The notes beneath the pieces are model-generated. The model was not told the DNA's origin. It was given only the letters and a program-made list of their open reading frames with translations, and did no database searches. From assembly GCA_000004985.1 (NCBI GenBank), contig GG738845.1: DNA of 64,000 nt; one strand, 5' to 3'. Position 1 is the first letter of the stretch. Each line of letters opens with the position of its first letter. A program made the translations under genes and the position numbers. This DNA comes from Naegleria gruberi. Lineage: Eukaryota. Below are positions 1 to 40,053 of the stretch, one piece after another.

Positions 1-45
1 TGTAAGTATAGTTTCCTTGCTATCATAATTATGAATTTGGAAAAG

Positions 46-1240
46 TGCTAAAAATCAAGAACAAAGAAAACGTAGATTTGCCAATGTTTCCAGTTTGATG
101 GCAAGTCCAGGAACTTTTTTCATGTTTAAAATTTGCCAGGAGATTTATAAATGGGCAGATGATGTGTTCTATTCACATGCCACAAAGGGAGTAGATATTA
201 AGGTGGAATTTTCTGATTGTTTCGTACCTGGAGAGGGTGAAATTAAAATTTTAGAGGCTATAAGAAATAATCCAAATTGTAGACATGTTGTCTATACTAA
301 GGATAGTGATTTTGTATTGCTCTTATTGACATCATGTGAGGAGAATATCATTCTTGTAAATGATTATCAGAAAATAGAAAAGATTATTCTGGTAAAGAGA
401 GTTAGAGATCAGTTTGGATTATTTGATAATCAACAATATAAGGAAAAATTGAATAGCATACTGTTGGATATGGTATTTCTATCAATAAGTTTTGGAAATG
501 ATTACTTGAAACCAATGTCACACGAACAAAAATTGTTAAACCTATTATTGAGATACAAGAAAAAGAAGCAAAAATATCCAGAAAAGTCTCTCGTTCATAT
601 TGAGAAGAATACAATTGGACTAGATTTGGAGTTTTTCACCAAGATTTTAATTAAATCGAAGGATGTACAACCCTCCATGAAACGATCAGAGGAAGAAACT
701 CTTTTAACGCTTAATTATTTGAAGAGTTTGTTGTGGTGTATTGGCACTTATGAGAGTGGAGTCTGTAGAAATTACTCACAATTCTCACATTGCACACCAC
801 CAGTACTTTTGTCTCAAATGATTCAAGATATGAGAATTTTAGCGAAAAGGGATAAGATATTAATGTTGCCAACAATTGGTGATTCAAGCTTGTTACCAGT
901 TACATTTTTAATGTCCATAATGCCTTTCACTGTATTTAGACAGGCGATACCAAAGAATATCATTTCATTAATTGAGTCGGATAGGTCTCTAATTGTAGAG
1001 TATCAGAATCACTCTTTAAAGCCATCAAGTTTCTTCCAATTGAAAACAATTGAACAAAAGCTACAGTCCTCCATCTCCAAGGAGAAAACAATCCAAGAGG
1101 ATGACCAGATTTGGTGTGAAAAATTACTCTATCCACCCAATACAGTGTTCAAAGTTTCGAAAAATAGAATTGAGGATATCTATCTCAGAACCAAAAAAAT
1201 AGCTAAAATCCTTAAAAAGAGCAAGTCAAATAGTAAATAA
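46..1240 (+). CDS. 5'-3' exoribonuclease (XRN-family)-like protein, 5'-partial; upstream exons lie before the window
   Basis: The translation carries 'FSDCFVPGEGEIKILEAIR', matching the XRN 'PGEGEHKI' motif, and 'KDSDFVLLL' aligns to XRN 'LDADLIML'. 'FGNDYL' aligns to 'VGNDFI' and 'QEQRKRRFA' to XRN 'NQQRGRRFRSA'. Window positions 2-7 are GTAAGT (an intron donor), and an acceptor AG at 44-45 opens the frame from 46. The track ORF 95..1240 starts at an in-frame TTG. Stop TAA at 1238-1240. Confidence 0.55.
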
Positions 1241-1393
1241 TTTGAATGTGCAAAATTGTATTTATTTTGGTTGCGAACAGACTTGTCAGTGACTTTAGTT
1301 ATTTTACAAAGTTGTGCTTAGAAATTGGCTCGTGCCAAACCTAGATTAGTATTATTAATTGGTATCTCAAATAGTTCTTGAAATTGGAAATAT

Positions 1394-1993
1394 CTAGTCA
1401 TCCCACGACGACTGTTGTTTTGGAACATTCTCAAAATCTACTTCCTTATCATACTCATATCCCTCATCACCAGGTCTGATAACGTTGAATTTCTTGTCCA
1501 TCTCTGCCTTTACTCTCCTTAGGGTGACATCATCTAGCTTGTTCAAGTCTTTCTGTTGTGTTTCACTGTCTTCCTCATCCTCGTCAAAGTTATCGTCATC
1601 ACCTTGGTGATGGTACTTAGAGGTTGTATTATTGGTATTTGGGGAAGGTTTACTTTGGTTTTGTATAGATTGAGGCCTATTATCTGGAGGTAAAAATGAT
1701 TTTGTAGTAAAATCGACCAGTTTTCTGATCATTTTTGTAGTTTGATTTTCTGGAATGTGGGAGGCTAAATTCTTATGGTGCTTCATCAGGACATTAGACT
1801 TGATGTGTTCAACCAATTCATCTTCCTCTAATTCCGGATAGTTTTGTACAATGTAGTCTTCCAAGTAAATTTTTCGATGTCTGAGTTCCTTCTTTCCTTT
1901 CTTTGAAATTGTTGTATATTCAATTACGAGAGCACATAATTTCAATCTAATTCCAATTCTTAAAACATTTACATCATCGTTATTTGAGGGCAT
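1394..1993 (-). CDS. CEP19: CEP19-like centrosomal/ciliary protein
   Basis: The C-terminus 'DLNKLDDVTLRRVKAEMDKKF...YEYDKEVDFENVP...SWDD' aligns with human CEP19 '[21 protein letters not shown]...FVYDIEVEFPQDD...GWD'. The N-terminal 'KKGKKELRHRKIYL' block is also shared. Single 199-aa ORF. Confidence 0.6.
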   Translation of the reverse strand: MPSNNDDVNVLRIGIRLKLCALVIEYTTISKKGKKELRHRKIYLEDYIVQNYPELEEDELVEHIKSNVLMKHHKNLASHIPENQTTKMIRKLVDFTTKSFLPPDNRPQSIQNQSKPSPNTNNTTSKYHHQGDDDNFDEDEEDSETQQKDLNKLDDVTLRRVKAEMDKKFNVIRPGDEGYEYDKEVDFENVPKQQSSWDD

Positions 1994-2171
1994 TTTTTTT
2001 GTAGATTTTTGGAGGCAAAAATTTCGTTCAAATAAGCTTCAGTGCTACATTAAGGGAGCCTAAATATGGTAAAAACAATTCTTGTTTGTGGAAAAATTCT
2101 TCTTCTTGAAACCTATAACATGCAATATGTGTTGTTGATACATCCTACAAAGTAGTGAAACATGCTTGTTA

Positions 2172-2867
2172 TTATTCTCTCTCTGTATTATTCAATATGT
2201 ATTTTAAGGAGAGAGGATAGAAATTCTCAAAGAAATCATATTTTCTATAATCTAGATAATTGTGGGGCCACTTATCAATTCCAATCTTTTCCTTGATCTG
2301 ATAAAATTTTCTTTTAAGAGTTGATAAACTACATCCAAGAACATTGCATGCTTGCTGTTGAGTAAGATGCAAGAGACGTATCATCTCATCATCTGTAATA
2401 CTATCCACACTTCTTTTTCCTCTTTTTCCAATCATGGATGCATCGACTCGAATTATGGAAACATGTTGATCCTTTGAATAATTAAAATATGAATTCTTAT
2501 GAACATCTACTGGGCTTAACATTTGATTTTCCATGAATGTATAAACAACTTGTTCAAAGGGTTTTTCGCTAGTATTCGAACTATTGGAATCTCTATTCTT
2601 CATTTCGTACTTTCTTTTGATTTTTTTAGTTTTTTTCACTCCACCAATCCTGAATTTCGACATGTATTCGAATTGTGAGTTGGATGTTAAGCATGTGTCA
2701 TCAACATCCTCATGCACATGCATGCCATCCGTTGTCACATTAGCAGATGTGTTGTACGCAGATTCTGGTGATGGTAATCTCATACTATTGTTGTGTTGGT
2801 GTTGTTGTTGATTTCCCCTATTAATGTTTAAATAGATGTTATGGTTTGATGTTGTTTGATGCATCAA
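2172..2867 (-). CDS. RWP-RK domain transcription factor-like protein
   Basis: The C-terminal 'ITDDEMIRLLHLTQQQACNVLGCSLSTLKRKFYQIKEKIGIDKWP' matches the RWP-RK domain consensus (...LGVS.T.LKR.CR..GI.RWP.RK). The N-terminus is Q/N-rich and low complexity. Confidence 0.6.
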   Translation of the reverse strand: MMHQTTSNHNIYLNINRGNQQQHQHNNSMRLPSPESAYNTSANVTTDGMHVHEDVDDTCLTSNSQFEYMSKFRIGGVKKTKKIKRKYEMKNRDSNSSNTSEKPFEQVVYTFMENQMLSPVDVHKNSYFNYSKDQHVSIIRVDASMIGKRGKRSVDSITDDEMIRLLHLTQQQACNVLGCSLSTLKRKFYQIKEKIGIDKWPHNYLDYRKYDFFENFYPLSLKYILNNTERE

Positions 2868-3894
2868 GGCTGCGGAGGAGGATGTTATATTGGCTAGTGT
2901 TGAGATTTGTAGATGGATTCAAAAGCTCTGAGTACTCCATTGATGTGAAGTTGTGTTTTTTGTTGGTTTTTAATGATGGCAATGACTAGAAGAAAGAACA
3001 TAGATGAGCGAGTAAAGCTCGTCAGTGTAGATCGTTCGTTATTGGTTGGGAAGTTTTTTTGTTGTGTGTTGTTGGTGGTTCAAGGGTTGATTTCTTTGGA
3101 AAGAATAGACCTTTACTGGCCCAATTTATTATCGTTGCAACACTGGTTGAAGACAGAGAGTGTCCTTGACAATTCCATCGATTATCTTTTGGGTAATGGT
3201 GTTTTTGTGGTTTGAGATAATTTTGTTTAAGAAACTAACCAATCACATTATTCATTGTAAAATACACAACAAAAATTGAACCCAAATCATGTTTCAGATT
3301 TCTTATTATCAAGCAATGTGATATGACAGAACTATTTATTAATAATTTACATAAAATGTGATTCAAAATTTAAAACTCAAGAAAGATATTCTTCATAGTC
3401 TTCCTTCGAACTGTTAGAGAGGGATTAATTTAGAGTGATGAGGAAAAGCTATAAACGAAATAAACAATCAAGCTAATGATGGAGAGGTAAATAAAATCTA
3501 TTTAACAAGTCCGATTATTAATTATTAAAATATAATTGTTATTAAATTATCAATATCAACAACAACACATACTCATCAAAATAATTTCCCACGGTTCCAA
3601 CATGTAGTTAACACTCATAATTTGATAGTGTTTGAATTTTCTCTGAAGAAAGCCGATCATCTTGTTGCAATTTTTTATTTGATTTTAATGTCCTTGCTGC
3701 GAAAGGCAAACAGAAAAGTTATCGTTGAAAGTAATATCCTCTATCACCCTTCAACTAATTGGATGATAGAATTGTCGGTTCATGTAAGGAACGAGTAATA
3801 AGAAGAGCAAGATATAAGTAATTGGAGGAAACAACATTAAATAGATGATAAATATTTCCCGCCAAGTGTTATTTACGAAAAAACATCAAAAAAA

Positions 3895-5295
3895 ATGAGC
3901 TCAAACCGAAGACCCAACAATAATAACACAGCACCTCCCCAACCCACAACAGCCGCTGCTAATCCAGCTGATGCTAAGAATTATGAAGAGTTGAAGGCGG
4001 AATTGGAGGAGACAAAGAGAAATAGAAATTACTACCAATTGGAAAGGGATAGAATAAATTCCTTCTGGGATATTACAAAGAAGGAAGTGGAAAATCTCAA
4101 GGGCGAGGTAAGGAACATGCAGAGGGAGATGGAAGAAAATGAAGAAAGACATCAGGTAGAATTAAAAGTGTACAAACAAAAAGTTAGACATCTTCTCTAT
4201 GAACAAAAGATCACCATTGATAGATTAAAAATTGAAAGTGAGAATGCTTTAAAGATCCAAGCTGATGAATTTAGGCAAAAATTAGCTCAATTGAAATCGG
4301 ATAAGAGAAAATTAAAAAGAGAACTCCACTCTATGGAAATAGCTTACCAAGAAGAAATCAAGGGGCTTAAAACGAATCAAGACAAAAACTTGACAAAACA
4401 AACTGAGACATTTGCAAGAAAACTTAAAGAGACCCAACTGAAATATGAAATGAAAATGAAAAAATTAAGAGAAGATTTAGAATTGAGAGGGAGAAAAGAA
4501 ACTGAAGAAATTGAAGAAAGAAAAAATACTCACATCAAACAATTAATGGAAAAACACAAACTTGCCTTTCAACAAATGAAGGATTACTATATAACTATTA
4601 CTAGAAATAACTTGGAATTAATCAAAACTCTGAAAGATGAAGCTGCACTGATGAAACAGGAAGAAGCAGACAATGAAAAACTCATGTTGGAAATTGCTCA
4701 AGACAATAAGAGATTGAGTGAACCTCTTGTTAAGGCTCTGGCAGAAGTTAAAAAGCTCAGAAATGAATTGGCCAACTACCAAAAGGACAAGCTATCTCTC
4801 AAAAATGCCAAGAGCAGGCTGGTCATGATGGAAGATCAATTGAAGAAATTGAAATGGGAACATGAGATTTTAGAACAAAGCCATAAGCAAGTGCACAGAG
4901 AACGTGACGATCTTTACGATAAGTTTGAAAAAACTATTCATGAAGTTCAACAAAAAACACTGTTCAAGAATCAAGTTCTTGAAACAAAGGTTTATGCACT
5001 TCAAGAAACTTTGGAAAAGAAGGATGCCCAAATTCATGAAATACTCAAAGCTTGTAACATAGATGAACACACAGCCGAAGAAATCTCTGAAGGTCTTGAT
5101 AATGTCATTGAAGAAAAGAACAACACGATACGAGAACTCAAATTTGAAATTGAAAAGATGAAGAAGAGTTATAATGATTTGATACGAGTAATTAATGCCA
5201 AGATGCAACAGTATGGAATTGAGGATGAGTTAGGTATTGAACCAATCGCTAACGTTGTTGATGAAGGTGTCCCAGGTAGAGTATGGGTAAAATAA
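3895..5295 (+). CDS. GAS8: GAS8 / dynein regulatory complex subunit 4 (DRC4), axonemal
   Basis: The 466-aa coiled-coil protein is collinear with human GAS8 (478 aa). Examples: 'ERDRINSFWDITKKE' vs 'ERDKIHTFWEITRRQ', and 'EERHQVELKVYKQKVRHLLYE' vs '[21 protein letters not shown]'. 'LKWEHEILEQ' and 'FKNQVLE' are also shared. Single exon. Confidence 0.85.
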   Translation: MSSNRRPNNNNTAPPQPTTAAANPADAKNYEELKAELEETKRNRNYYQLERDRINSFWDITKKEVENLKGEVRNMQREMEENEERHQVELKVYKQKVRHLLYEQKITIDRLKIESENALKIQADEFRQKLAQLKSDKRKLKRELHSMEIAYQEEIKGLKTNQDKNLTKQTETFARKLKETQLKYEMKMKKLREDLELRGRKETEEIEERKNTHIKQLMEKHKLAFQQMKDYYITITRNNLELIKTLKDEAALMKQEEADNEKLMLEIAQDNKRLSEPLVKALAEVKKLRNELANYQKDKLSLKNAKSRLVMMEDQLKKLKWEHEILEQSHKQVHRERDDLYDKFEKTIHEVQQKTLFKNQVLETKVYALQETLEKKDAQIHEILKACNIDEHTAEEISEGLDNVIEEKNNTIRELKFEIEKMKKSYNDLIRVINAKMQQYGIEDELGIEPIANVVDEGVPGRVWVK

Positions 5296-5350
5296 GTAGC
5301 ACTAAATTCAACAAACACTAGGTTTTTTATCTTGTAAATAAAGTTAACAA

Positions 5351-6209
5351 TTGTTATTGATTGACTATTTGCAGAATAATTGTTTTTCTATTATTAAAAA
5401 AATGACAATACATCATACTTCTGATGGTATCAGAGAGGGTTATCAATTTAAAGATCCCTATATTAAAAATCTATTTAATATGATTGCAAAACAATCACCT
5501 TGTTTTCCAATTGAACCTGATCATGTTCAAGTTATCGAAACACCATCACAATTTTATGATGATTTATTGGAGGGAATTAAACATGCAAAAGACAGAGTTG
5601 TATTGAGTAGTTTATATCTAGGAACAGGAGAACAAGAGAAGAAAATTATTCAAGTCTAAGGACTCTTCTATAGCTCTCACTAGCGCCTATTTTAACTTTA
5701 CAGATGAATATATGGAAAGAGTATTGACTACACCATGTACAGACATTTCAATACTCACTGCCTCACCGGCTGCAAATGGATTTTTTACAGCAACTGGCAT
5801 TTCAAAGAATATTCCAATGGCATATGATACTATGGAGCAATCATTTTTTTCTGCAGTTGAGAGAAATCAAAAATTGGGATCCATCAAATTATTCGAATAC
5901 AATAGAGAGAAGTGGACTTTCCATGCCAAAGGATTGTGGCTCTATTCTCCAAACAAAACTATTAATGCACCATTTCTAACCATGATTGGAAGTAGTAATT
6001 TTGGACAACGATCAACAGAAAGAGATGTCGAATCTCAAATAATTTTAATGACTGAGGATGAAAAGTTAATGCAAACATTAGAGAAGGAGAGACAAGGTCT
6101 CGCCAATTACTCCAAACTTGTAACAAGAGCTACTTTTGCCTCTCCTGAGAGAAAGATTGGCAAAGTTTCACAGTTTTTAGTTTCCAAGTTTTTCCATAAA
6201 TTCCTTTAA
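5351..6209 (+). CDS. PGS1: CDP-diacylglycerol--glycerol-3-phosphate 3-phosphatidyltransferase (PGS1, PLD superfamily) - apparently internally deleted or mis-assembled
   Basis: ORF 5351..5659 'VQVIETPSQFYDDLLEGIKHAKDRVVLSSLYLGTGEQEKKII' matches the PGS1 N-terminus ('VRVLSSPAEFFELMKGQIRVAKRRVVMASLYLGTGPLEQELV'). ORF 5712..6209 'ILTASPAANGFF...EKWTFHAKGLWLY...TMIGSSNFGQRS' matches the PGS1 C-terminus including the second HKD motif. The roughly 230 residues between them, including the first HKD 'HIKVYLFDN', are absent. The two ORFs are in different frames, and no intron of this size could supply the missing sequence. Confidence 0.55.
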
Positions 6210-6212
6210 TTT

Positions 6213-9200
6213 TTATTCCAAATCTTTGAAATACTTTTCCATCTCGGCACTAGCTTTGAGATTCTTTGGATTTAATGGATAAGGATACAAATCGCCCTTA
6301 AGAGTCTTTCTCAAGTATTTATAACCTTGCTTTCCATCAGCTTTAGAAATGATTACTTTTGATAAAGTACCTTCAGGTAAGCACATTGAAGTAATTACGT
6401 GACCTCCTCTCTTGAGTGGAGTATCAGTAATACGAGGCCATCTAAATGATTGAAGAGAAAATTCTCTTGCATAACCTCTCAATTCCTTTCTAAGTGCAAT
6501 TTCCTTTTCCACAACAGAATCTGGAAGTTGCTCTCTTATTTGTTTCTTTCTCATTTCTTCTTCTTCTTCTTTTTCTACTTGCTCTCCATATTTAAATCCA
6601 TCAAGTCCATGTCTCTTGAAAGCAATGAATGAGTAATTTTCATTTTCATATTGTTTTTTAGCTTGCTTGGTCAACTTTTGGAATTCTTCGCGCTCCACTC
6701 TTTGTGCAAAGTGACACCATTTTGGAGTGCCGGCCATTGGACAAACTGAATCATGAGGGCATGGGGCCAATATTGTTGGCTTATCATTAATGTTAATGTA
6801 TTTTTGTGTGAGTACTGTTGATCTAGCCTCTCTGATAAAATCAAATCCAACAGGTGTACCTGGTTCAATAATTATCAAAACACCAGATGTTAGTTTCCAC
6901 AGTGCCTTTACAATTCTTTCTCTTTCTTGAGAGTTAGACAATTCATTCATTACAAATGAGGCAACAACAAGGTCATATTGCTTACTAGAATGTTCATTCA
7001 AAAAACGTCTCCATGTAATGTGTGGTTTGTTGTTCATATATTCGAATAATCTGGAAGCAACGTCCATCATTGCAGTAGACGGTTCAACAGCCATCACTTC
7101 TTTCACACTTCCTCCAAAAGCTTCATGAGCTGCCCAAATGGTAGTACCTGGTCCAGTACCAAAATCAAGCATTGTCTTTGGTTCAAAGTCAGGCATTCTC
7201 ATTACAGCCTCTGAAAATACTCTATATGATGTACCATAGATGGCAGGAAGTCTGTGGGCAATATATGCAGCAGATTCCAACTCCTTATAAATAATTTGAG
7301 GATTATAAGTTCTATTAAATTCCTCTTCACTATCCTTTTTCATCTTTTCAATATCAATAGGTCTCTTCTTTTTTTTTGAGGTTTCCTTGTAACTTCTCAA
7401 ATGTTTGAGAACTTCCAATTGTTCCCTGAATAATTCATCTTCAGGACTTTCATCCTTATTCAATTTCTTTTCTTCATCAGATCTGCTGAAAACTTTTGGA
7501 TTCTTATCCAAGCCATTAGTTCTCAATCTAAAGGCAGCACTTAGAATTTGAGCAGTTCTTTGAATCAAATTCTTTGGATATTCAGATACAATCTCAGATA
7601 CACCCTCAACAAGTTCTGGAGGAAGACTAATAGAACCAATACTCATATTGGCTATTTCCTTTCTAAGCTTATCCTCGTTTTCTTTTGTAGATTTCTTCAA
7701 GTATGGGTGTATATCCTCTGAAAACATTGCATATTCTGATTTGGTTTCATATTCAGATAATAGTAAATTCTTTTCTTCCAACGATTGGAAAATTTGGTTT
7801 GGGTCATCATCCCCCAAGTATTCATCCAAAAGATTCGAAATTGGTGTCTCATTCTCTTCATTTTCCAATTCGTCTTGCAGTTTATCATAAGCTGTAGTTT
7901 TTTCTATTTTTTTAGGTTGAGTTTTTTCCTTCTTCTTTTTAATGATTTCATCATCTTTAAGAATGGTATTAAGATCTGAAATATCATATCCATATTCTAA
8001 AAAGTAGTTTTTAGCATCTATCAATTTCTTCTCCAAATCTCTCTCATCAAAATTTGAGCTTTCCAAATCTACCTCATCCTTGGTACTTTCATCAACTAGT
8101 AAATCTCTTAGAGGTATTCTTCCCTTTGATCCTGCAACTATAAGTGGTTTCGTTTGGTCCTTATTGGTGGCATTTTTAACCTTTTCCACAACTTTCTTTG
8201 TATTGGTTCCAATTGGGTAGAGGATTAATATTTTTCTACCATGATTGTTTTGTATTACTGGTGAGTATCCCTTTAATTCCCATTGTTTGTTAAATTCAAC
8301 TGGATTTGACATGGCATTACTATATTGTTCATCTGTTAAATTCAAGATGGTTGTGGAGAATGTTGGACTAGATTCATTTTGATCCACTTCTGGTTTTTCT
8401 TTACTTGAGTCCATTGTTTCTTTGTGAGCTAATTCTTCATAACTAGATGGTTTCTTATTGACGGTGGAGAGTCTTTGGGATAATTTTTGGAGATCGGTCT
8501 TTTTGTGAGGTTTTGAGGAGAGCTTATCACTCTCAACAATTTCAATATTCTTTGGCAATTGTTTCTTTGGTCTTTCGACATCCTCTTCCTCTTCCTCAGT
8601 AATACTATTTACAAATTGTTTGAATGAAATATCTTCTTTTCCTCTCTTCTCCTCCTCTTCCTCTGGTACAGAATTCACATAGTCTTCGTATGCTTTTTTG
8701 AGTTCTGCCTTCTTTTTCTTTTTTTCTTCAATTTCCTCTGGTGTACTGTCCATGTCAGGGAGAAGAATATTTTCCAAATTGTATCTGACATCATGTTTAA
8801 TACCCCATTCAACAACTTTCGAGATGTCATCCTCAGTGTTTACCTTATTTTGTAAGAGGTTTGCAAATTTCTTATCTTGTAATTTAGTTGTTGTGTATTC
8901 TGCAACAGGCATTGAGCTTGTATCTATTTGATCTCGTTTAGGTTTGTTAACAAGAATTTTGAATGATGATTCATCTTTCTTTCTAGATTCCTCCTTTTTC
9001 TTTTCTAGTTCCTTTGCTTCCTTCAACCTGGATTCTTTCATCTCTTTCCTCAATTTTTGAACAAGTGCTACAACATCCTCTTCCTCCATATTATTTTTTC
9101 CATCAGTTACCTTTTGATTTGTGATAGTAGTGGTATTTGGTTGTTGTGGGTTGGATAATTTTGTGGTACTTTTTGGAATCTCTGAAGATACCTTCTTTTT

Positions 9201-9452
9201 CGTTTTGTTGCTGGCTTGTTCTATTTTCTTATTGTTGGATTTAGTTGTGTTCATTGGTTTGTTGTTACTATTCTTTTTAATTCCCGATGATTTTTCCATG
9301 GATGAAAGTAGAGAATCAATAGAAGATTTCTTCTCTAGAAAAAGTGTTGTAGAGAATAACCTATTGTTATTTCCAATCAGAGGCAATTTTCTAGAAAGAG
9401 GCAATCCCGACAAGGAAGCTACTACTGATGACTTTCCAACGAATCTCTTCAT
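6213..9452 (-). CDS. Rsm22/METTL17-like mitochondrial methyltransferase with long K/E-rich N-terminal extension
   Basis: The C-terminal roughly 450 aa carry 'MLDFGTGPGTTIWAAHEAFG' (a SAM-binding G-x-G-x-G) and a cysteine cluster 'APCPHDSVCPMAGT...WCHF', typical of the Rsm22 family. The N-terminus 'MKRFVGKSSVVASLSGLPLSRKLPLIGNNNRLFSTT' looks like a mitochondrial presequence. About 600 aa of low-complexity K/E/S-rich sequence lie between. Stop is 3 bp from the convergent PGS1 stop. Confidence 0.5.
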   Translation of the reverse strand: MKRFVGKSSVVASLSGLPLSRKLPLIGNNNRLFSTTLFLEKKSSIDSLLSSMEKSSGIKKNSNNKPMNTTKSNNKKIEQASNKTKKKVSSEIPKSTTKLSNPQQPNTTTITNQKVTDGKNNMEEEDVVALVQKLRKEMKESRLKEAKELEKKKEESRKKDESSFKILVNKPKRDQIDTSSMPVAEYTTTKLQDKKFANLLQNKVNTEDDISKVVEWGIKHDVRYNLENILLPDMDSTPEEIEEKKKKKAELKKAYEDYVNSVPEEEEEKRGKEDISFKQFVNSITEEEEEDVERPKKQLPKNIEIVESDKLSSKPHKKTDLQKLSQRLSTVNKKPSSYEELAHKETMDSSKEKPEVDQNESSPTFSTTILNLTDEQYSNAMSNPVEFNKQWELKGYSPVIQNNHGRKILILYPIGTNTKKVVEKVKNATNKDQTKPLIVAGSKGRIPLRDLLVDESTKDEVDLESSNFDERDLEKKLIDAKNYFLEYGYDISDLNTILKDDEIIKKKKEKTQPKKIEKTTAYDKLQDELENEENETPISNLLDEYLGDDDPNQIFQSLEEKNLLLSEYETKSEYAMFSEDIHPYLKKSTKENEDKLRKEIANMSIGSISLPPELVEGVSEIVSEYPKNLIQRTAQILSAAFRLRTNGLDKNPKVFSRSDEEKKLNKDESPEDELFREQLEVLKHLRSYKETSKKKKRPIDIEKMKKDSEEEFNRTYNPQIIYKELESAAYIAHRLPAIYGTSYRVFSEAVMRMPDFEPKTMLDFGTGPGTTIWAAHEAFGGSVKEVMAVEPSTAMMDVASRLFEYMNNKPHITWRRFLNEHSSKQYDLVVASFVMNELSNSQERERIVKALWKLTSGVLIIIEPGTPVGFDFIREARSTVLTQKYININDKPTILAPCPHDSVCPMAGTPKWCHFAQRVEREEFQKLTKQAKKQYENENYSFIAFKRHGLDGFKYGEQVEKEEEEEMRKKQIREQLPDSVVEKEIALRKELRGYAREFSLQSFRWPRITDTPLKRGGHVITSMCLPEGTLSKVIISKADGKQGYKYLRKTLKGDLYPYPLNPKNLKASAEMEKYFKDLE

Positions 9453-37890: not shown

Positions 37891-39368
37891 TTACATTTTC
37901 GGTGTATAATATTTGAATTTGATCGATTTCTTCTTTTTAACAAGTGTACCCTCATTAATAAAATCTCCATACTCATTACCAAGAATATTTACAACCGTGA
38001 CAGGTGTTTGTGGACTCTTTTTGATTTTTGATGGTTTGGAGATTTTCTGAATGGGTTGAGAGTTGTAATTTCTTTGAGGAGTAATAGCGCATTCATCATG
38101 TAAAGATACATCATTCCAAGCATTGTTTTGATTGGACTGAAAATTTGGAACACTTCCAGCAGAAGATACCACTGTTGTGTCTATCTTTGTTATAGATCCT
38201 CTTCTTGTTATATTTCTCGTACTATTTATGACCTGATGTTCATGCTTATCAAANNNNNNNNNNNNNNNNNNNNNNNNNNNNNNNNNNNNNNNNNNNNNNN
38301 NNNNNNNNNNNNNNNNNNNNNNNNNNNNNNNNNNNNNNNNNNNNNNNNNNNNNNNNNNNNNNNNNNNNNNNNNNNNNNNNNNNNNNNNNNNNNNNNNNNN
38401 NNNNNNNNNNNNNNNNNNNNNNNNNNNNNNNNNNNNNNNNNNNNNNNNNNNNNNNNNNNNNNNNNNNNNNNNNNNNNNNNNNNNNNNNNNNNNNNNNNNN
38501 NNNNNNNNNNNNNNNNNNNNNNNNNNNNNNNNNNNNNNNNNNNNNNNNNNNNNNNNNNNNNNNNNNNNNNNNNNNNNNNNNNNNNNNNNNNNNNNNNNNN
38601 NNNNNNNNNNNNNNNNNNNNNNNNNNNNNNNNNNNNNNNNNNNNNNNNNNNNNNNNNNNNNNNNNNNNNNNNNNNNNNNNNNNNNNNNNNNNNNNNNNNN
38701 NNNNNNNNNNNNNNNNNNNNNNNNNNNNATGAGCTATTATTAAGGGATGGACCAAAACGACATGTCGAGCTTGAGGATGGGGAGTTATTAAATTGACAAT
38801 TATTATGTTGAGGGTATTGGCGAGGTGGACTGGAATGGTGGAGAAGGTTATGTTGACTATTCAAATGTATGGAGTGAGCCTGACTTGTATTTGAATTTGG
38901 TGAGTGGAGATCTCCTGAAGAAGGTTCGCTATTGCCATTATTGAACATATGGACTTGAGGTGGAGAGGAAGTATTAAGGTTGTGGAATGAATGTTGTTGG
39001 TGGTGGTAGAATTGGGATTGATTTACATGTGTGGAGGAATGATTAGCAGAGCATGGTGGATTATTGACAGCATGGTTTGACCAGGAGGATGATGATGGAG
39101 GAGTATTAATAGCACTGGAATGTTGTTGAGGATTGTTATGAGTGGATTGGAATGTATTGGTTGGAGACACACAGTGGAACGAAGTGGCTCCTTGTGAGGC
39201 TTGTGATGAAAAAGAAGTTTGTCGTGTTAGTACTGAAGCATTATTGCTGCTCGACGTCGAGAACTTTGTAGTGCTATTCTGAGGAGAAGATCTATGACTG
39301 TAACTGTAGATACTTGTTGTTTGCTGATTAATAATATTATTATTATTATTAAGGTGATTCATTTTCAT
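37891..39368 (-). CDS. low-complexity S/N/H/Q/P-rich protein interrupted by an assembly gap (partial model)
   Basis: Track ORF 38226..39368 (-) 'MKMNHLNNNNNIINQQTTSIYSYSHRSS...' runs into the N-run. ORF 37891..38172 (-) on the far side is compositionally similar. Frame continuity across the gap is unknowable. Confidence 0.3.
38254..38728. other. assembly gap (475 N)
   Basis: Uninterrupted run of 'n' characters in the sequence. Confidence 0.99.
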
Positions 39369-40053
39369 ATATAAAAACTTGACTATACTAGTTTGTTAAA
39401 TGTATATTGAAAGCTAGTTCTTGCTTCTTTGCTCAAAGGACCTTAATGATATGCTAAATAACAAAGTATTATTAAAATAGTCAATGTAGTGTTGTTTTTT
39501 TGGAATGAGTGCATCACGCAATCCACACAAGGAAGTACTTCATCCAACAAGAGTCACATGTTCTTCTCTTCATATCAAAAGAATGTGGAGTGATTCATTT
39601 GAGGCGTGACCTTCTTTTTTGCAAAGAGAGAGATGACCCAATAAAGAAAGAATAGCTTGTATAGGATGTGATGAAAATTTGGTACAGATACGTGTAAGGA
39701 AATCATGACCTGCTAATAAGGTTATATAATGGTGTAAATATTAATTGTGTGGTGGCTTTACATATCTGGGTGTGTTGTGTACCTTTCCAAGAAAATAGAG
39801 CGGCCCTACCTCCTCCATACAATATTAAGGAGAAATGAAATACCCATACAAAGGCGTTTGATATTTCCTTATCTGGGCCTTATAACTGAAAATCTGGCTT
39901 GTTTGGATTCTAGTGCCAAGTTCTGATTTTTGTATTTGGAGATGAGCTTACAAATACGGTTCATTGTTTTGTTGTGCATTATTTATTGTCTGTGTCCACT
40001 TCAAAATAACAATGTTAAATTTCTTATATTGCTCAAATGAACGAATTTAATAT

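Follow-up and report, generated by a model that had tools for sequence, protein, structure and literature searches.

A probable recent internal deletion in the reference copy of the Naegleria gruberi PGS1 gene

Introduction

The phosphatidylglycerophosphate (PGP) synthase PGS1 catalyses the committed step of the mitochondrial pathway to phosphatidylglycerol and cardiolipin. It is a two-domain enzyme of the PLD superfamily, and the HKD motifs of both PLD-type domains form one active site. Phosphatidylglycerol is used by the PLD-type cardiolipin synthase. Protein searches with PGS1 provide hundreds of named matches from animals, fungi, and amoebozoans. Among the relatives of Naegleria gruberi, an intact two-domain PGS1 is found in Naegleria lovaniensis (477 aa), Willaertia magna (494 aa), and Acrasis kona (486 aa), and the N. 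fowleri protein FDP41_008210 (480 aa) falls in the N. lovaniensis PGS1 cluster. A search that started from P0039, the closest full-length relative, also matched Naegleria-like metagenomic PGS1 proteins. Two PLD domains are present in all the orthologues found, and the N. lovaniensis gene is one intronless ORF of 1434 nt. PGS1 is non-syntenic within Naegleria: the gene that follows GAS8 is an L51_S25_CI-B8 gene in both N. fowleri and N. lovaniensis, and the N. lovaniensis PGS1 is flanked by a 718-aa gene and a protein kinase gene. N. gruberi itself has been scored with a PLD-type cardiolipin synthase (PMC3378450, Table 1) and as Pgs_pld-positive, in the latter case without an accession (PMC5573378, Table 2).

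Comparative studies of mitochondria and of lipid pathways commonly take the N. gruberi reference as their free-living heterolobosean. In this study, we analyzed a stretch of 64,000 nt from contig GG738845.1 of this reference (the whole of which is referred to as the window), where a PGS1 locus is found in a broken form. The initial annotation had ascribed the break either to an error of the draft assembly or to a decayed gene whose functional copy resides elsewhere.

Results and discussion

Two conserved parts of PGS1 abut in different reading frames

Two parts of PGS1 lie on the plus strand of the window. The N-terminal part comprises 84 codons (MTIHH...LYLGTGEQEKKIIQ, also given as MTIHH...VVLSSLYLGTGEQEKKIIQ) and extends from the PGS1 start codon, the ATG at 5402, to 5653, as delimited by blastp, by alignment, and by the independent contig L001 described below. 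The first PLD domain begins within this part, and the LYLGTG motif is found at 5612..5629. The C-terminal part, delimited by blastp and Pfam, occupies 5655..6209 and comprises 184 codons and the stop codon (6207..6209). It covers the whole second PLD domain: the first strand of this domain, SAYFNF, is found at 5682..5699, the second HKD motif, HAKGLW, at 5922..5939 (the family pattern being WTFHAKGLW...IGSSNFGxRS), and the motif IGSSNFGQRSTERD at 5985..6026. The Pfam match of this part to PLDc_2 (E = 9e-6) has a score of 26.0 bits, slightly below the cut-off of 27 bits.

The conservation of both parts is clear in the blastp comparisons. Against the N. lovaniensis PGS1 (P0187), the N-terminal part is 66% identical to residues 11–80 (E = 1e-34), and the C-terminal part is 80% identical to residues 295–477 (E = 2e-111); the corresponding identities to the N. 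fowleri PGS1 (P0298) are 59% and 79%. Judging from these alignments, the homology of both parts is far above chance, and the presence of two conserved PGS1 ends, as had been claimed in the initial annotation, is borne out. In the 84 + 184 = 268 retained codons, neither a stop codon nor a frameshift was found, while the wrong frames hold 4–14 stops per part.

The two parts had been placed at 5351..5659 and 5712..6209, about 50 nt apart. These positions are correct as the limits of the ORFs, but they do not delimit the parts of the gene: the N-terminal part starts at 5402, and the C-terminal homology begins at 5655, ahead of the ATG at 5712. Frame 0 is open from 5622; it reads SKDSSIALTSAYFNFTDEYMERVL... 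from 5655 up to the stop codon at 6207..6209, and the stretch SKDSSIALTSAYFNFTDEYM is open in this frame before 5712. The two parts are thus not separated by 50 nt but abut at 5654|5655, with the single base G5654 between them. The frame changes by +1 at this point, in agreement with the earlier description of two parts in different frames. At this plus-strand breakpoint (5654..5655), what remains of the lost Glu codon (GAA in L001) is its first base, G5654, and T5655 opens the C-terminal part. Past codon 84, the frame of the N-terminal part reads ...IIQ V and then stops (...CAA GTC TAA). According to the sequence and the ORF list, this premature TAA (5657..5659, plus strand) is made by the junction, and a continuous frame joining both PLD domains is absent.

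An intron linking the two parts was rejected, as had been the case in the initial annotation, because there is no sequence between them. Of the candidates inspected, the GT at 5654 combined with the AG at 5702–5703 gives the wrong frame, and the sole in-frame GT..AG pair, at 5654..5660, spans just 7 nt, which makes no plausible intron.

The ORF 5712..6209 is open and holds the second HKD motif. It could be imagined that this single-HKD C-terminal domain is translated from the ATG at 5712 and functions as a homodimer, like the single-HKD proteins of the PLD family. However, this ATG is located downstream of SAYFNF, the first conserved strand, there is no space for a promoter upstream of it, and all the orthologues found are two-domain proteins. 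A functional half-enzyme is accordingly almost inconceivable to us.

The middle of the enzyme is absent from the window

Relative to the 477 residues of the N. lovaniensis PGS1, the window copy retains the equivalents of residues 11–81 and 294–477, and homology over the full length is absent. Residues 82–293 are missing, as was found by blastp, tblastn, and alignment; this corresponds to 212 codons, rather than the approximately 230 previously estimated, and the claim that the middle with the first HKD motif is absent was verified. In the intact N. lovaniensis protein (P0187), the first PLDc_2 domain identified with Pfam covers residues 52–199, with the HKD site at 159–181, so that most of this domain is deleted. 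In the alignment, the LLDYLRGTR strand and the region of the first HKD motif (GVQHMK...SGANLSDWYFVDRQDRY) are absent from the window gene.

The whole window was also searched by tblastn. Full-length homologues (five in number) match only the two parts described above in the 64 kb; for example, residues 4–62 and 258–414 of P0010 are matched, and its middle has no significant match there. The first HKD motif (GVQHMK...SGANLSDWYF...RQDRY) was not found anywhere in the window, nor was a second PGS1-like sequence. With the five homologues, nothing significant to the PGS1 middle was obtained elsewhere in the window, the vicinity of its run of Ns included.

This run, at 38254..38728, is the only one in the window, and its presence indicates that the window is a scaffolded draft. 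The gap that had been pointed out in connection with a possible misassembly therefore exists, but it lies 32 kb away from the PGS1 junction and is not involved in it; no Ns are found within 32 kb of the junction. The GC content of the window is approximately 33%. The 2 kb around the N-run (38001..40000) show the lowest GC content (0.28) and a spike of the GC skew (+0.32).

Directly upstream of the PGS1 remnant, the GAS8/DRC4 gene is located on the plus strand (3895..5295; Pfam GAS, E = 4e-72). Its protein is identical to N. gruberi XP_002683213.1, which is encoded on a 1.56-Mb scaffold. On the downstream side, the remnant adjoins a gene for a mitochondrial Rsm22-type methyltransferase (6213..9452) on the opposite strand. 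The two genes are convergent, and their stop codons (6207..6209 on the plus strand for PGS1 and 6213..6215 on the minus strand for Rsm22) are 3 nt apart, leaving practically no space for separate 3′ UTRs. Because PGS1 is not beside GAS8 in N. fowleri and N. lovaniensis, the orthologous loci of these species could not be used for modelling the deleted DNA.

An independent contig continues with the expected PGS1 sequence

When the GAS8 protein was looked up by exact match, a single additional sequence with the same GAS8 gene was obtained. This sequence, L001, is a 5731-bp contig of ENA ERZ929261 (run ERR1078381, project PRJEB11402), and the sample is labelled as a metagenome. L001 aligns to positions 1..5654 of the window, and the alignment ends at window position 5654, which corresponds to L001 position 5632. 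Over 3787..5654 (approximately 1.87 kb, containing GAS8 and the whole N-terminal part of PGS1), the two sequences are 100% identical. Past 5654, the window reads TCTAAGGACTC..., while L001 reads AATTGGAAAAGGCTCTTGAAAGGGAAAGTACGTTGG.... This independent assembly of the same locus thus disagrees with the window at the junction.

The next 27 nt of L001, gAATTGGAAAAGGCTCTTGAAAGGGAA, encode ELEKALERE, in which all nine residues are identical to residues 82–90 of the N. lovaniensis PGS1. In the PGS1 frame, L001 reads ...EKKIIQ ELEKALERE, and the aligned N. lovaniensis sequence reads ...EQKIVD ELEKALERE KDLQVVILLDYLRGTR. Since nine of nine residues agree exactly at the point where the window breaks off, chance is ruled out as the origin of this continuation. 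By this comparison, the true continuation of PGS1 is that of L001, and the deletion in the window begins at 5655. Only 99 nt of L001 follow the breakpoint; the missing segment beyond them and the 3′ breakpoint lie outside the contig.

These data lead to the following picture. The deletion at 5654|5655 removes no fewer than 212 codons, or 636 coding bases, together with any intron between them. It shifts the frame by +1, and the N-terminal ORF ends after 85 codons. With the deletion, the first PLD domain and its HKD motif are lost, and the second domain is left without a start codon upstream of its first strand. As written, the window copy is predicted to be non-functional and to give only an N-terminal peptide of 85 residues. 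The defect appears to belong to this copy, and a loss of PGS1 at the level of the species would not be the case, because a near-identical assembly at the same locus continues with the expected PGS1 sequence. The sequenced organism presumably has a working copy, and an intact form of the locus studied here is the most likely source of its PGP synthase; the mitochondrial location and the PGP synthase activity of this protein are presumed from orthology. Taken together, a recent internal deletion in this reference copy, with a working PGS1 kept by the sequenced organism, is a very probable explanation of the locus.

The general idea of the initial annotation, namely, a defective copy in the presence of an intact gene, is supported by the continuation of L001 at 5654 with ELEKALERE. 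The specific form that had been given to this idea needs revision in two respects. One is the term "decayed", which does not fit 268 codons without a stop codon or frameshift that are 66–80% identical to N. lovaniensis. The other is the location of the functional copy, which had been sought elsewhere; the intact form occupies this very locus, where it follows the same GAS8 gene. An old pseudogene accompanied by a functional paralogue at another locus might be suspected from the non-synteny of PGS1 among Naegleria, by which the gene has moved in evolution. Nevertheless, the clean reading of the 268 codons, in sequence of 33% GC, and the intact 5′ continuation at the very same locus in L001 make this explanation very improbable. 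The conservation of these codons to other Naegleria at the level of a working gene and the near-identity to L001 indicate that the lesion is very recent, or is no biological event at all, and is not an old pseudogene. Because the intact form is at the same locus, an artefact has to be weighed against a null allele or haplotype, rather than a pseudogene plus a paralogue.

The tail of L001 suggests an intron

After ELEKALERE, the sequence of L001 is no longer that of PGS1: it reads A|GTACGT..., and a stop codon occurs 17 codons further on. Based on this structure, L001 5660..5731 is a candidate for a phase-1 intron that follows ...GAAAGGGAAA|GTACGT and splits an AAR codon. This phase fits, because the next residue in N. 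lovaniensis is Lys (AAA). N. lovaniensis, whose gene is intronless, lacks the putative intron that follows ...ERE (GTACGTTGGCC...), and this could reflect an intron gain or loss between the two species. No significant match of the L001 tail was found within the window, where the matches stayed at the level of chance. A short intron within the tail was also considered, since its frame 1 contains SNLNIILNL, which resembles the expected NLQVVILLD. It was rejected because only two AGs precede this stretch and they give an intron of 18–22 nt, and the resemblance was treated as a chance product of AT-rich sequence.

Other differences between the window and L001

Apart from the junction, the window and L001 differ by 3 substitutions in approximately 5.5 kb and by indels of 27 nt, 129 nt, and three of 1–2 nt. 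A minus-strand CEP19-like gene is shorter by 27 nt in the window, around position 1592 (L001 1671..1697). The missing segment is in frame and corresponds to nine codons (DIDEEDFDD, an acidic run); 7-nt direct repeats (ATCGTCA) lie on either side of it, and such a deletion is a signature of slippage or microhomology. At 2945..3075, the window has 131 nt where L001 has 2 nt (net 129 nt). This difference is located approximately 80 nt upstream of a gene for an RWP-RK-domain protein on the minus strand, has GGTT/ATTGGTT repeats at its edges, and looks like a complex rearrangement. The intergenic region 3076..3895 accounts for all three small indels and for all but one of the substitutions. As a whole, the differences look like natural variation under selection and not like random error. 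Since L001 has 3 SNPs and 5 other indels relative to the window, it is another haplotype or strain, and so it is no proof about the sequenced clone itself.

Artefact or null allele

Two causes of the deletion were rated about equal. One is an artefact of cloning or assembly, in which the DNA is intact on all copies, and the Sanger draft lost approximately 0.7–1 kb or more. A plasmid clone may have deleted the segment in E. coli where the coverage was thin, or contigs may have been abutted across a gap without Ns. The window is indeed a Sanger-era draft with an N-run, and the independent L001 disagrees with it exactly at the breakpoint, where it carries the expected sequence. The remaining differences between the two sequences look filtered by selection, being intergenic or, where coding, in frame, and a frame-breaking deletion in a conserved mitochondrial enzyme is an outlier among them. 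However, the junction is free of Ns, the nearest N-run being 32 kb off, and no repeat that could cause a collapse is present at the visible breakpoint, the L001 tail matching the window only by chance; the 3′ side of the deleted segment lies outside L001. Moreover, the indels of 27 and 129 nt look real and make structural differences between the window and L001 common. On balance, an artefact is quite possible, at somewhat less than an even chance.

The other cause is a real null deletion allele that is confined to one haplotype or specific to a strain. In this case, an intact second allele would shelter the null allele, and the assembler would have chosen the deleted haplotype. The junction is clean and free of Ns, and the window and L001 represent two different haplotypes or strains, separated by several mid-size indels within 5.6 kb; both points are consistent with such an allele, as is the deletion of 27 nt from the window between 7-nt direct repeats. 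Naegleria has been described as a mainly heterozygous diploid with clonal propagation (PMC9928731), and an organism of this kind can shelter recessive null alleles. Nevertheless, the deleted junction is shown by the window alone and by no other contig in the public collections searched, and a null allele of a gene conserved throughout Heterolobosea is unexpected amid variation that looks selected. We estimate the chance of a null allele to be nearly even.

A true loss is improbable

The sequenced axenic clone (NEG-M) might also be homozygous for the deletion and be devoid of a functional PLD-type PGS1. The protein searches did not provide an intact N. gruberi PGS1 protein, and there is no second copy in the window. 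Exact look-ups of the N-terminal ORF and the C-terminal ORF of the window PGS1 and of Rsm22 gave no match in the public collections. Among the JGI metagenome contigs, no relative was obtained with the peptides of the C-terminal part, and no match with a 34-nt DNA pattern. A chimera of the N. lovaniensis middle and the N. gruberi C-terminal part had no match either in a word-index protein search, which also misses the N. lovaniensis PGS1. Because this 80%-identical orthologue was missed, the absences from the word-index search carry zero weight. The exhaustive protein search shows only representatives of 50%-identity clusters, the best of which is 53% identical, and N. gruberi copies are invisible in it. 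In the literature searched, neither the lesion nor the project PRJEB11402 is mentioned.

While the absences from the protein searches are for these reasons weak, several observations contradict a true loss more directly. An intact form is found at this locus in a sequence that differs by 3 substitutions per approximately 5.5 kb (L001), the retained parts do not show decay, and the PLD-type cardiolipin synthase of N. gruberi (PMC3378450) needs phosphatidylglycerol. A homozygous loss is thus quite improbable. If it were true, a free-living eukaryote that depends on its mitochondria would be without a PLD-type PGP synthase, and phosphatidylglycerol and cardiolipin would be made by an unrecognised route or another enzyme, or their absence would be tolerated.

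Implications for annotation and comparison with known systems

Biologically, an internal deletion that is specific to the reference and affects a well-known gene is ordinary, and the main value of the present finding is practical, as a caution for annotation and comparative genomics. A broken PGS1 locus without a usable gene model can be misread as the loss of a pathway, or a truncated protein can enter alignments; the exact breakpoint, 5654|5655, is now available. Should the deletion be real, it would be a modestly interesting case of a null allele sheltered in an amoeba that has long been propagated clonally.

The closest known systems are the PGS1 genes of N. lovaniensis and N. fowleri, which are orthologues of the window copy and have in common with it the C-terminal ...SKFFHKFL, the LYLGTG motif, and the second HKD motif. 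They are intact and encode two domains, whereas the window copy lacks residues 82–293 and is frameshifted, and their gene neighbourhoods are unlike that of the window. The eukaryotic PGS1 enzymes, including yeast Pgs1/Pel1 and human PGS1 (PLD superfamily, EC 2.7.8.5), belong to the same family. Unlike them, the window copy encodes the second domain only, and enzyme activity would not be expected of it. Among the solved structures, those closest to the intact Naegleria orthologue are of the bacterial PLD-type phosphatidylserine synthase (PDB 3hsi and 8yr5), which align with it over nearly the full length (E = 4e-16 to 7e-12). They share the two-domain CDP-diacylglycerol phosphatidyltransferase architecture of the intact PGS1, but their sequences are distant from it, and the acceptor is serine in the bacterial enzyme and glycerol-3-phosphate in PGS1.
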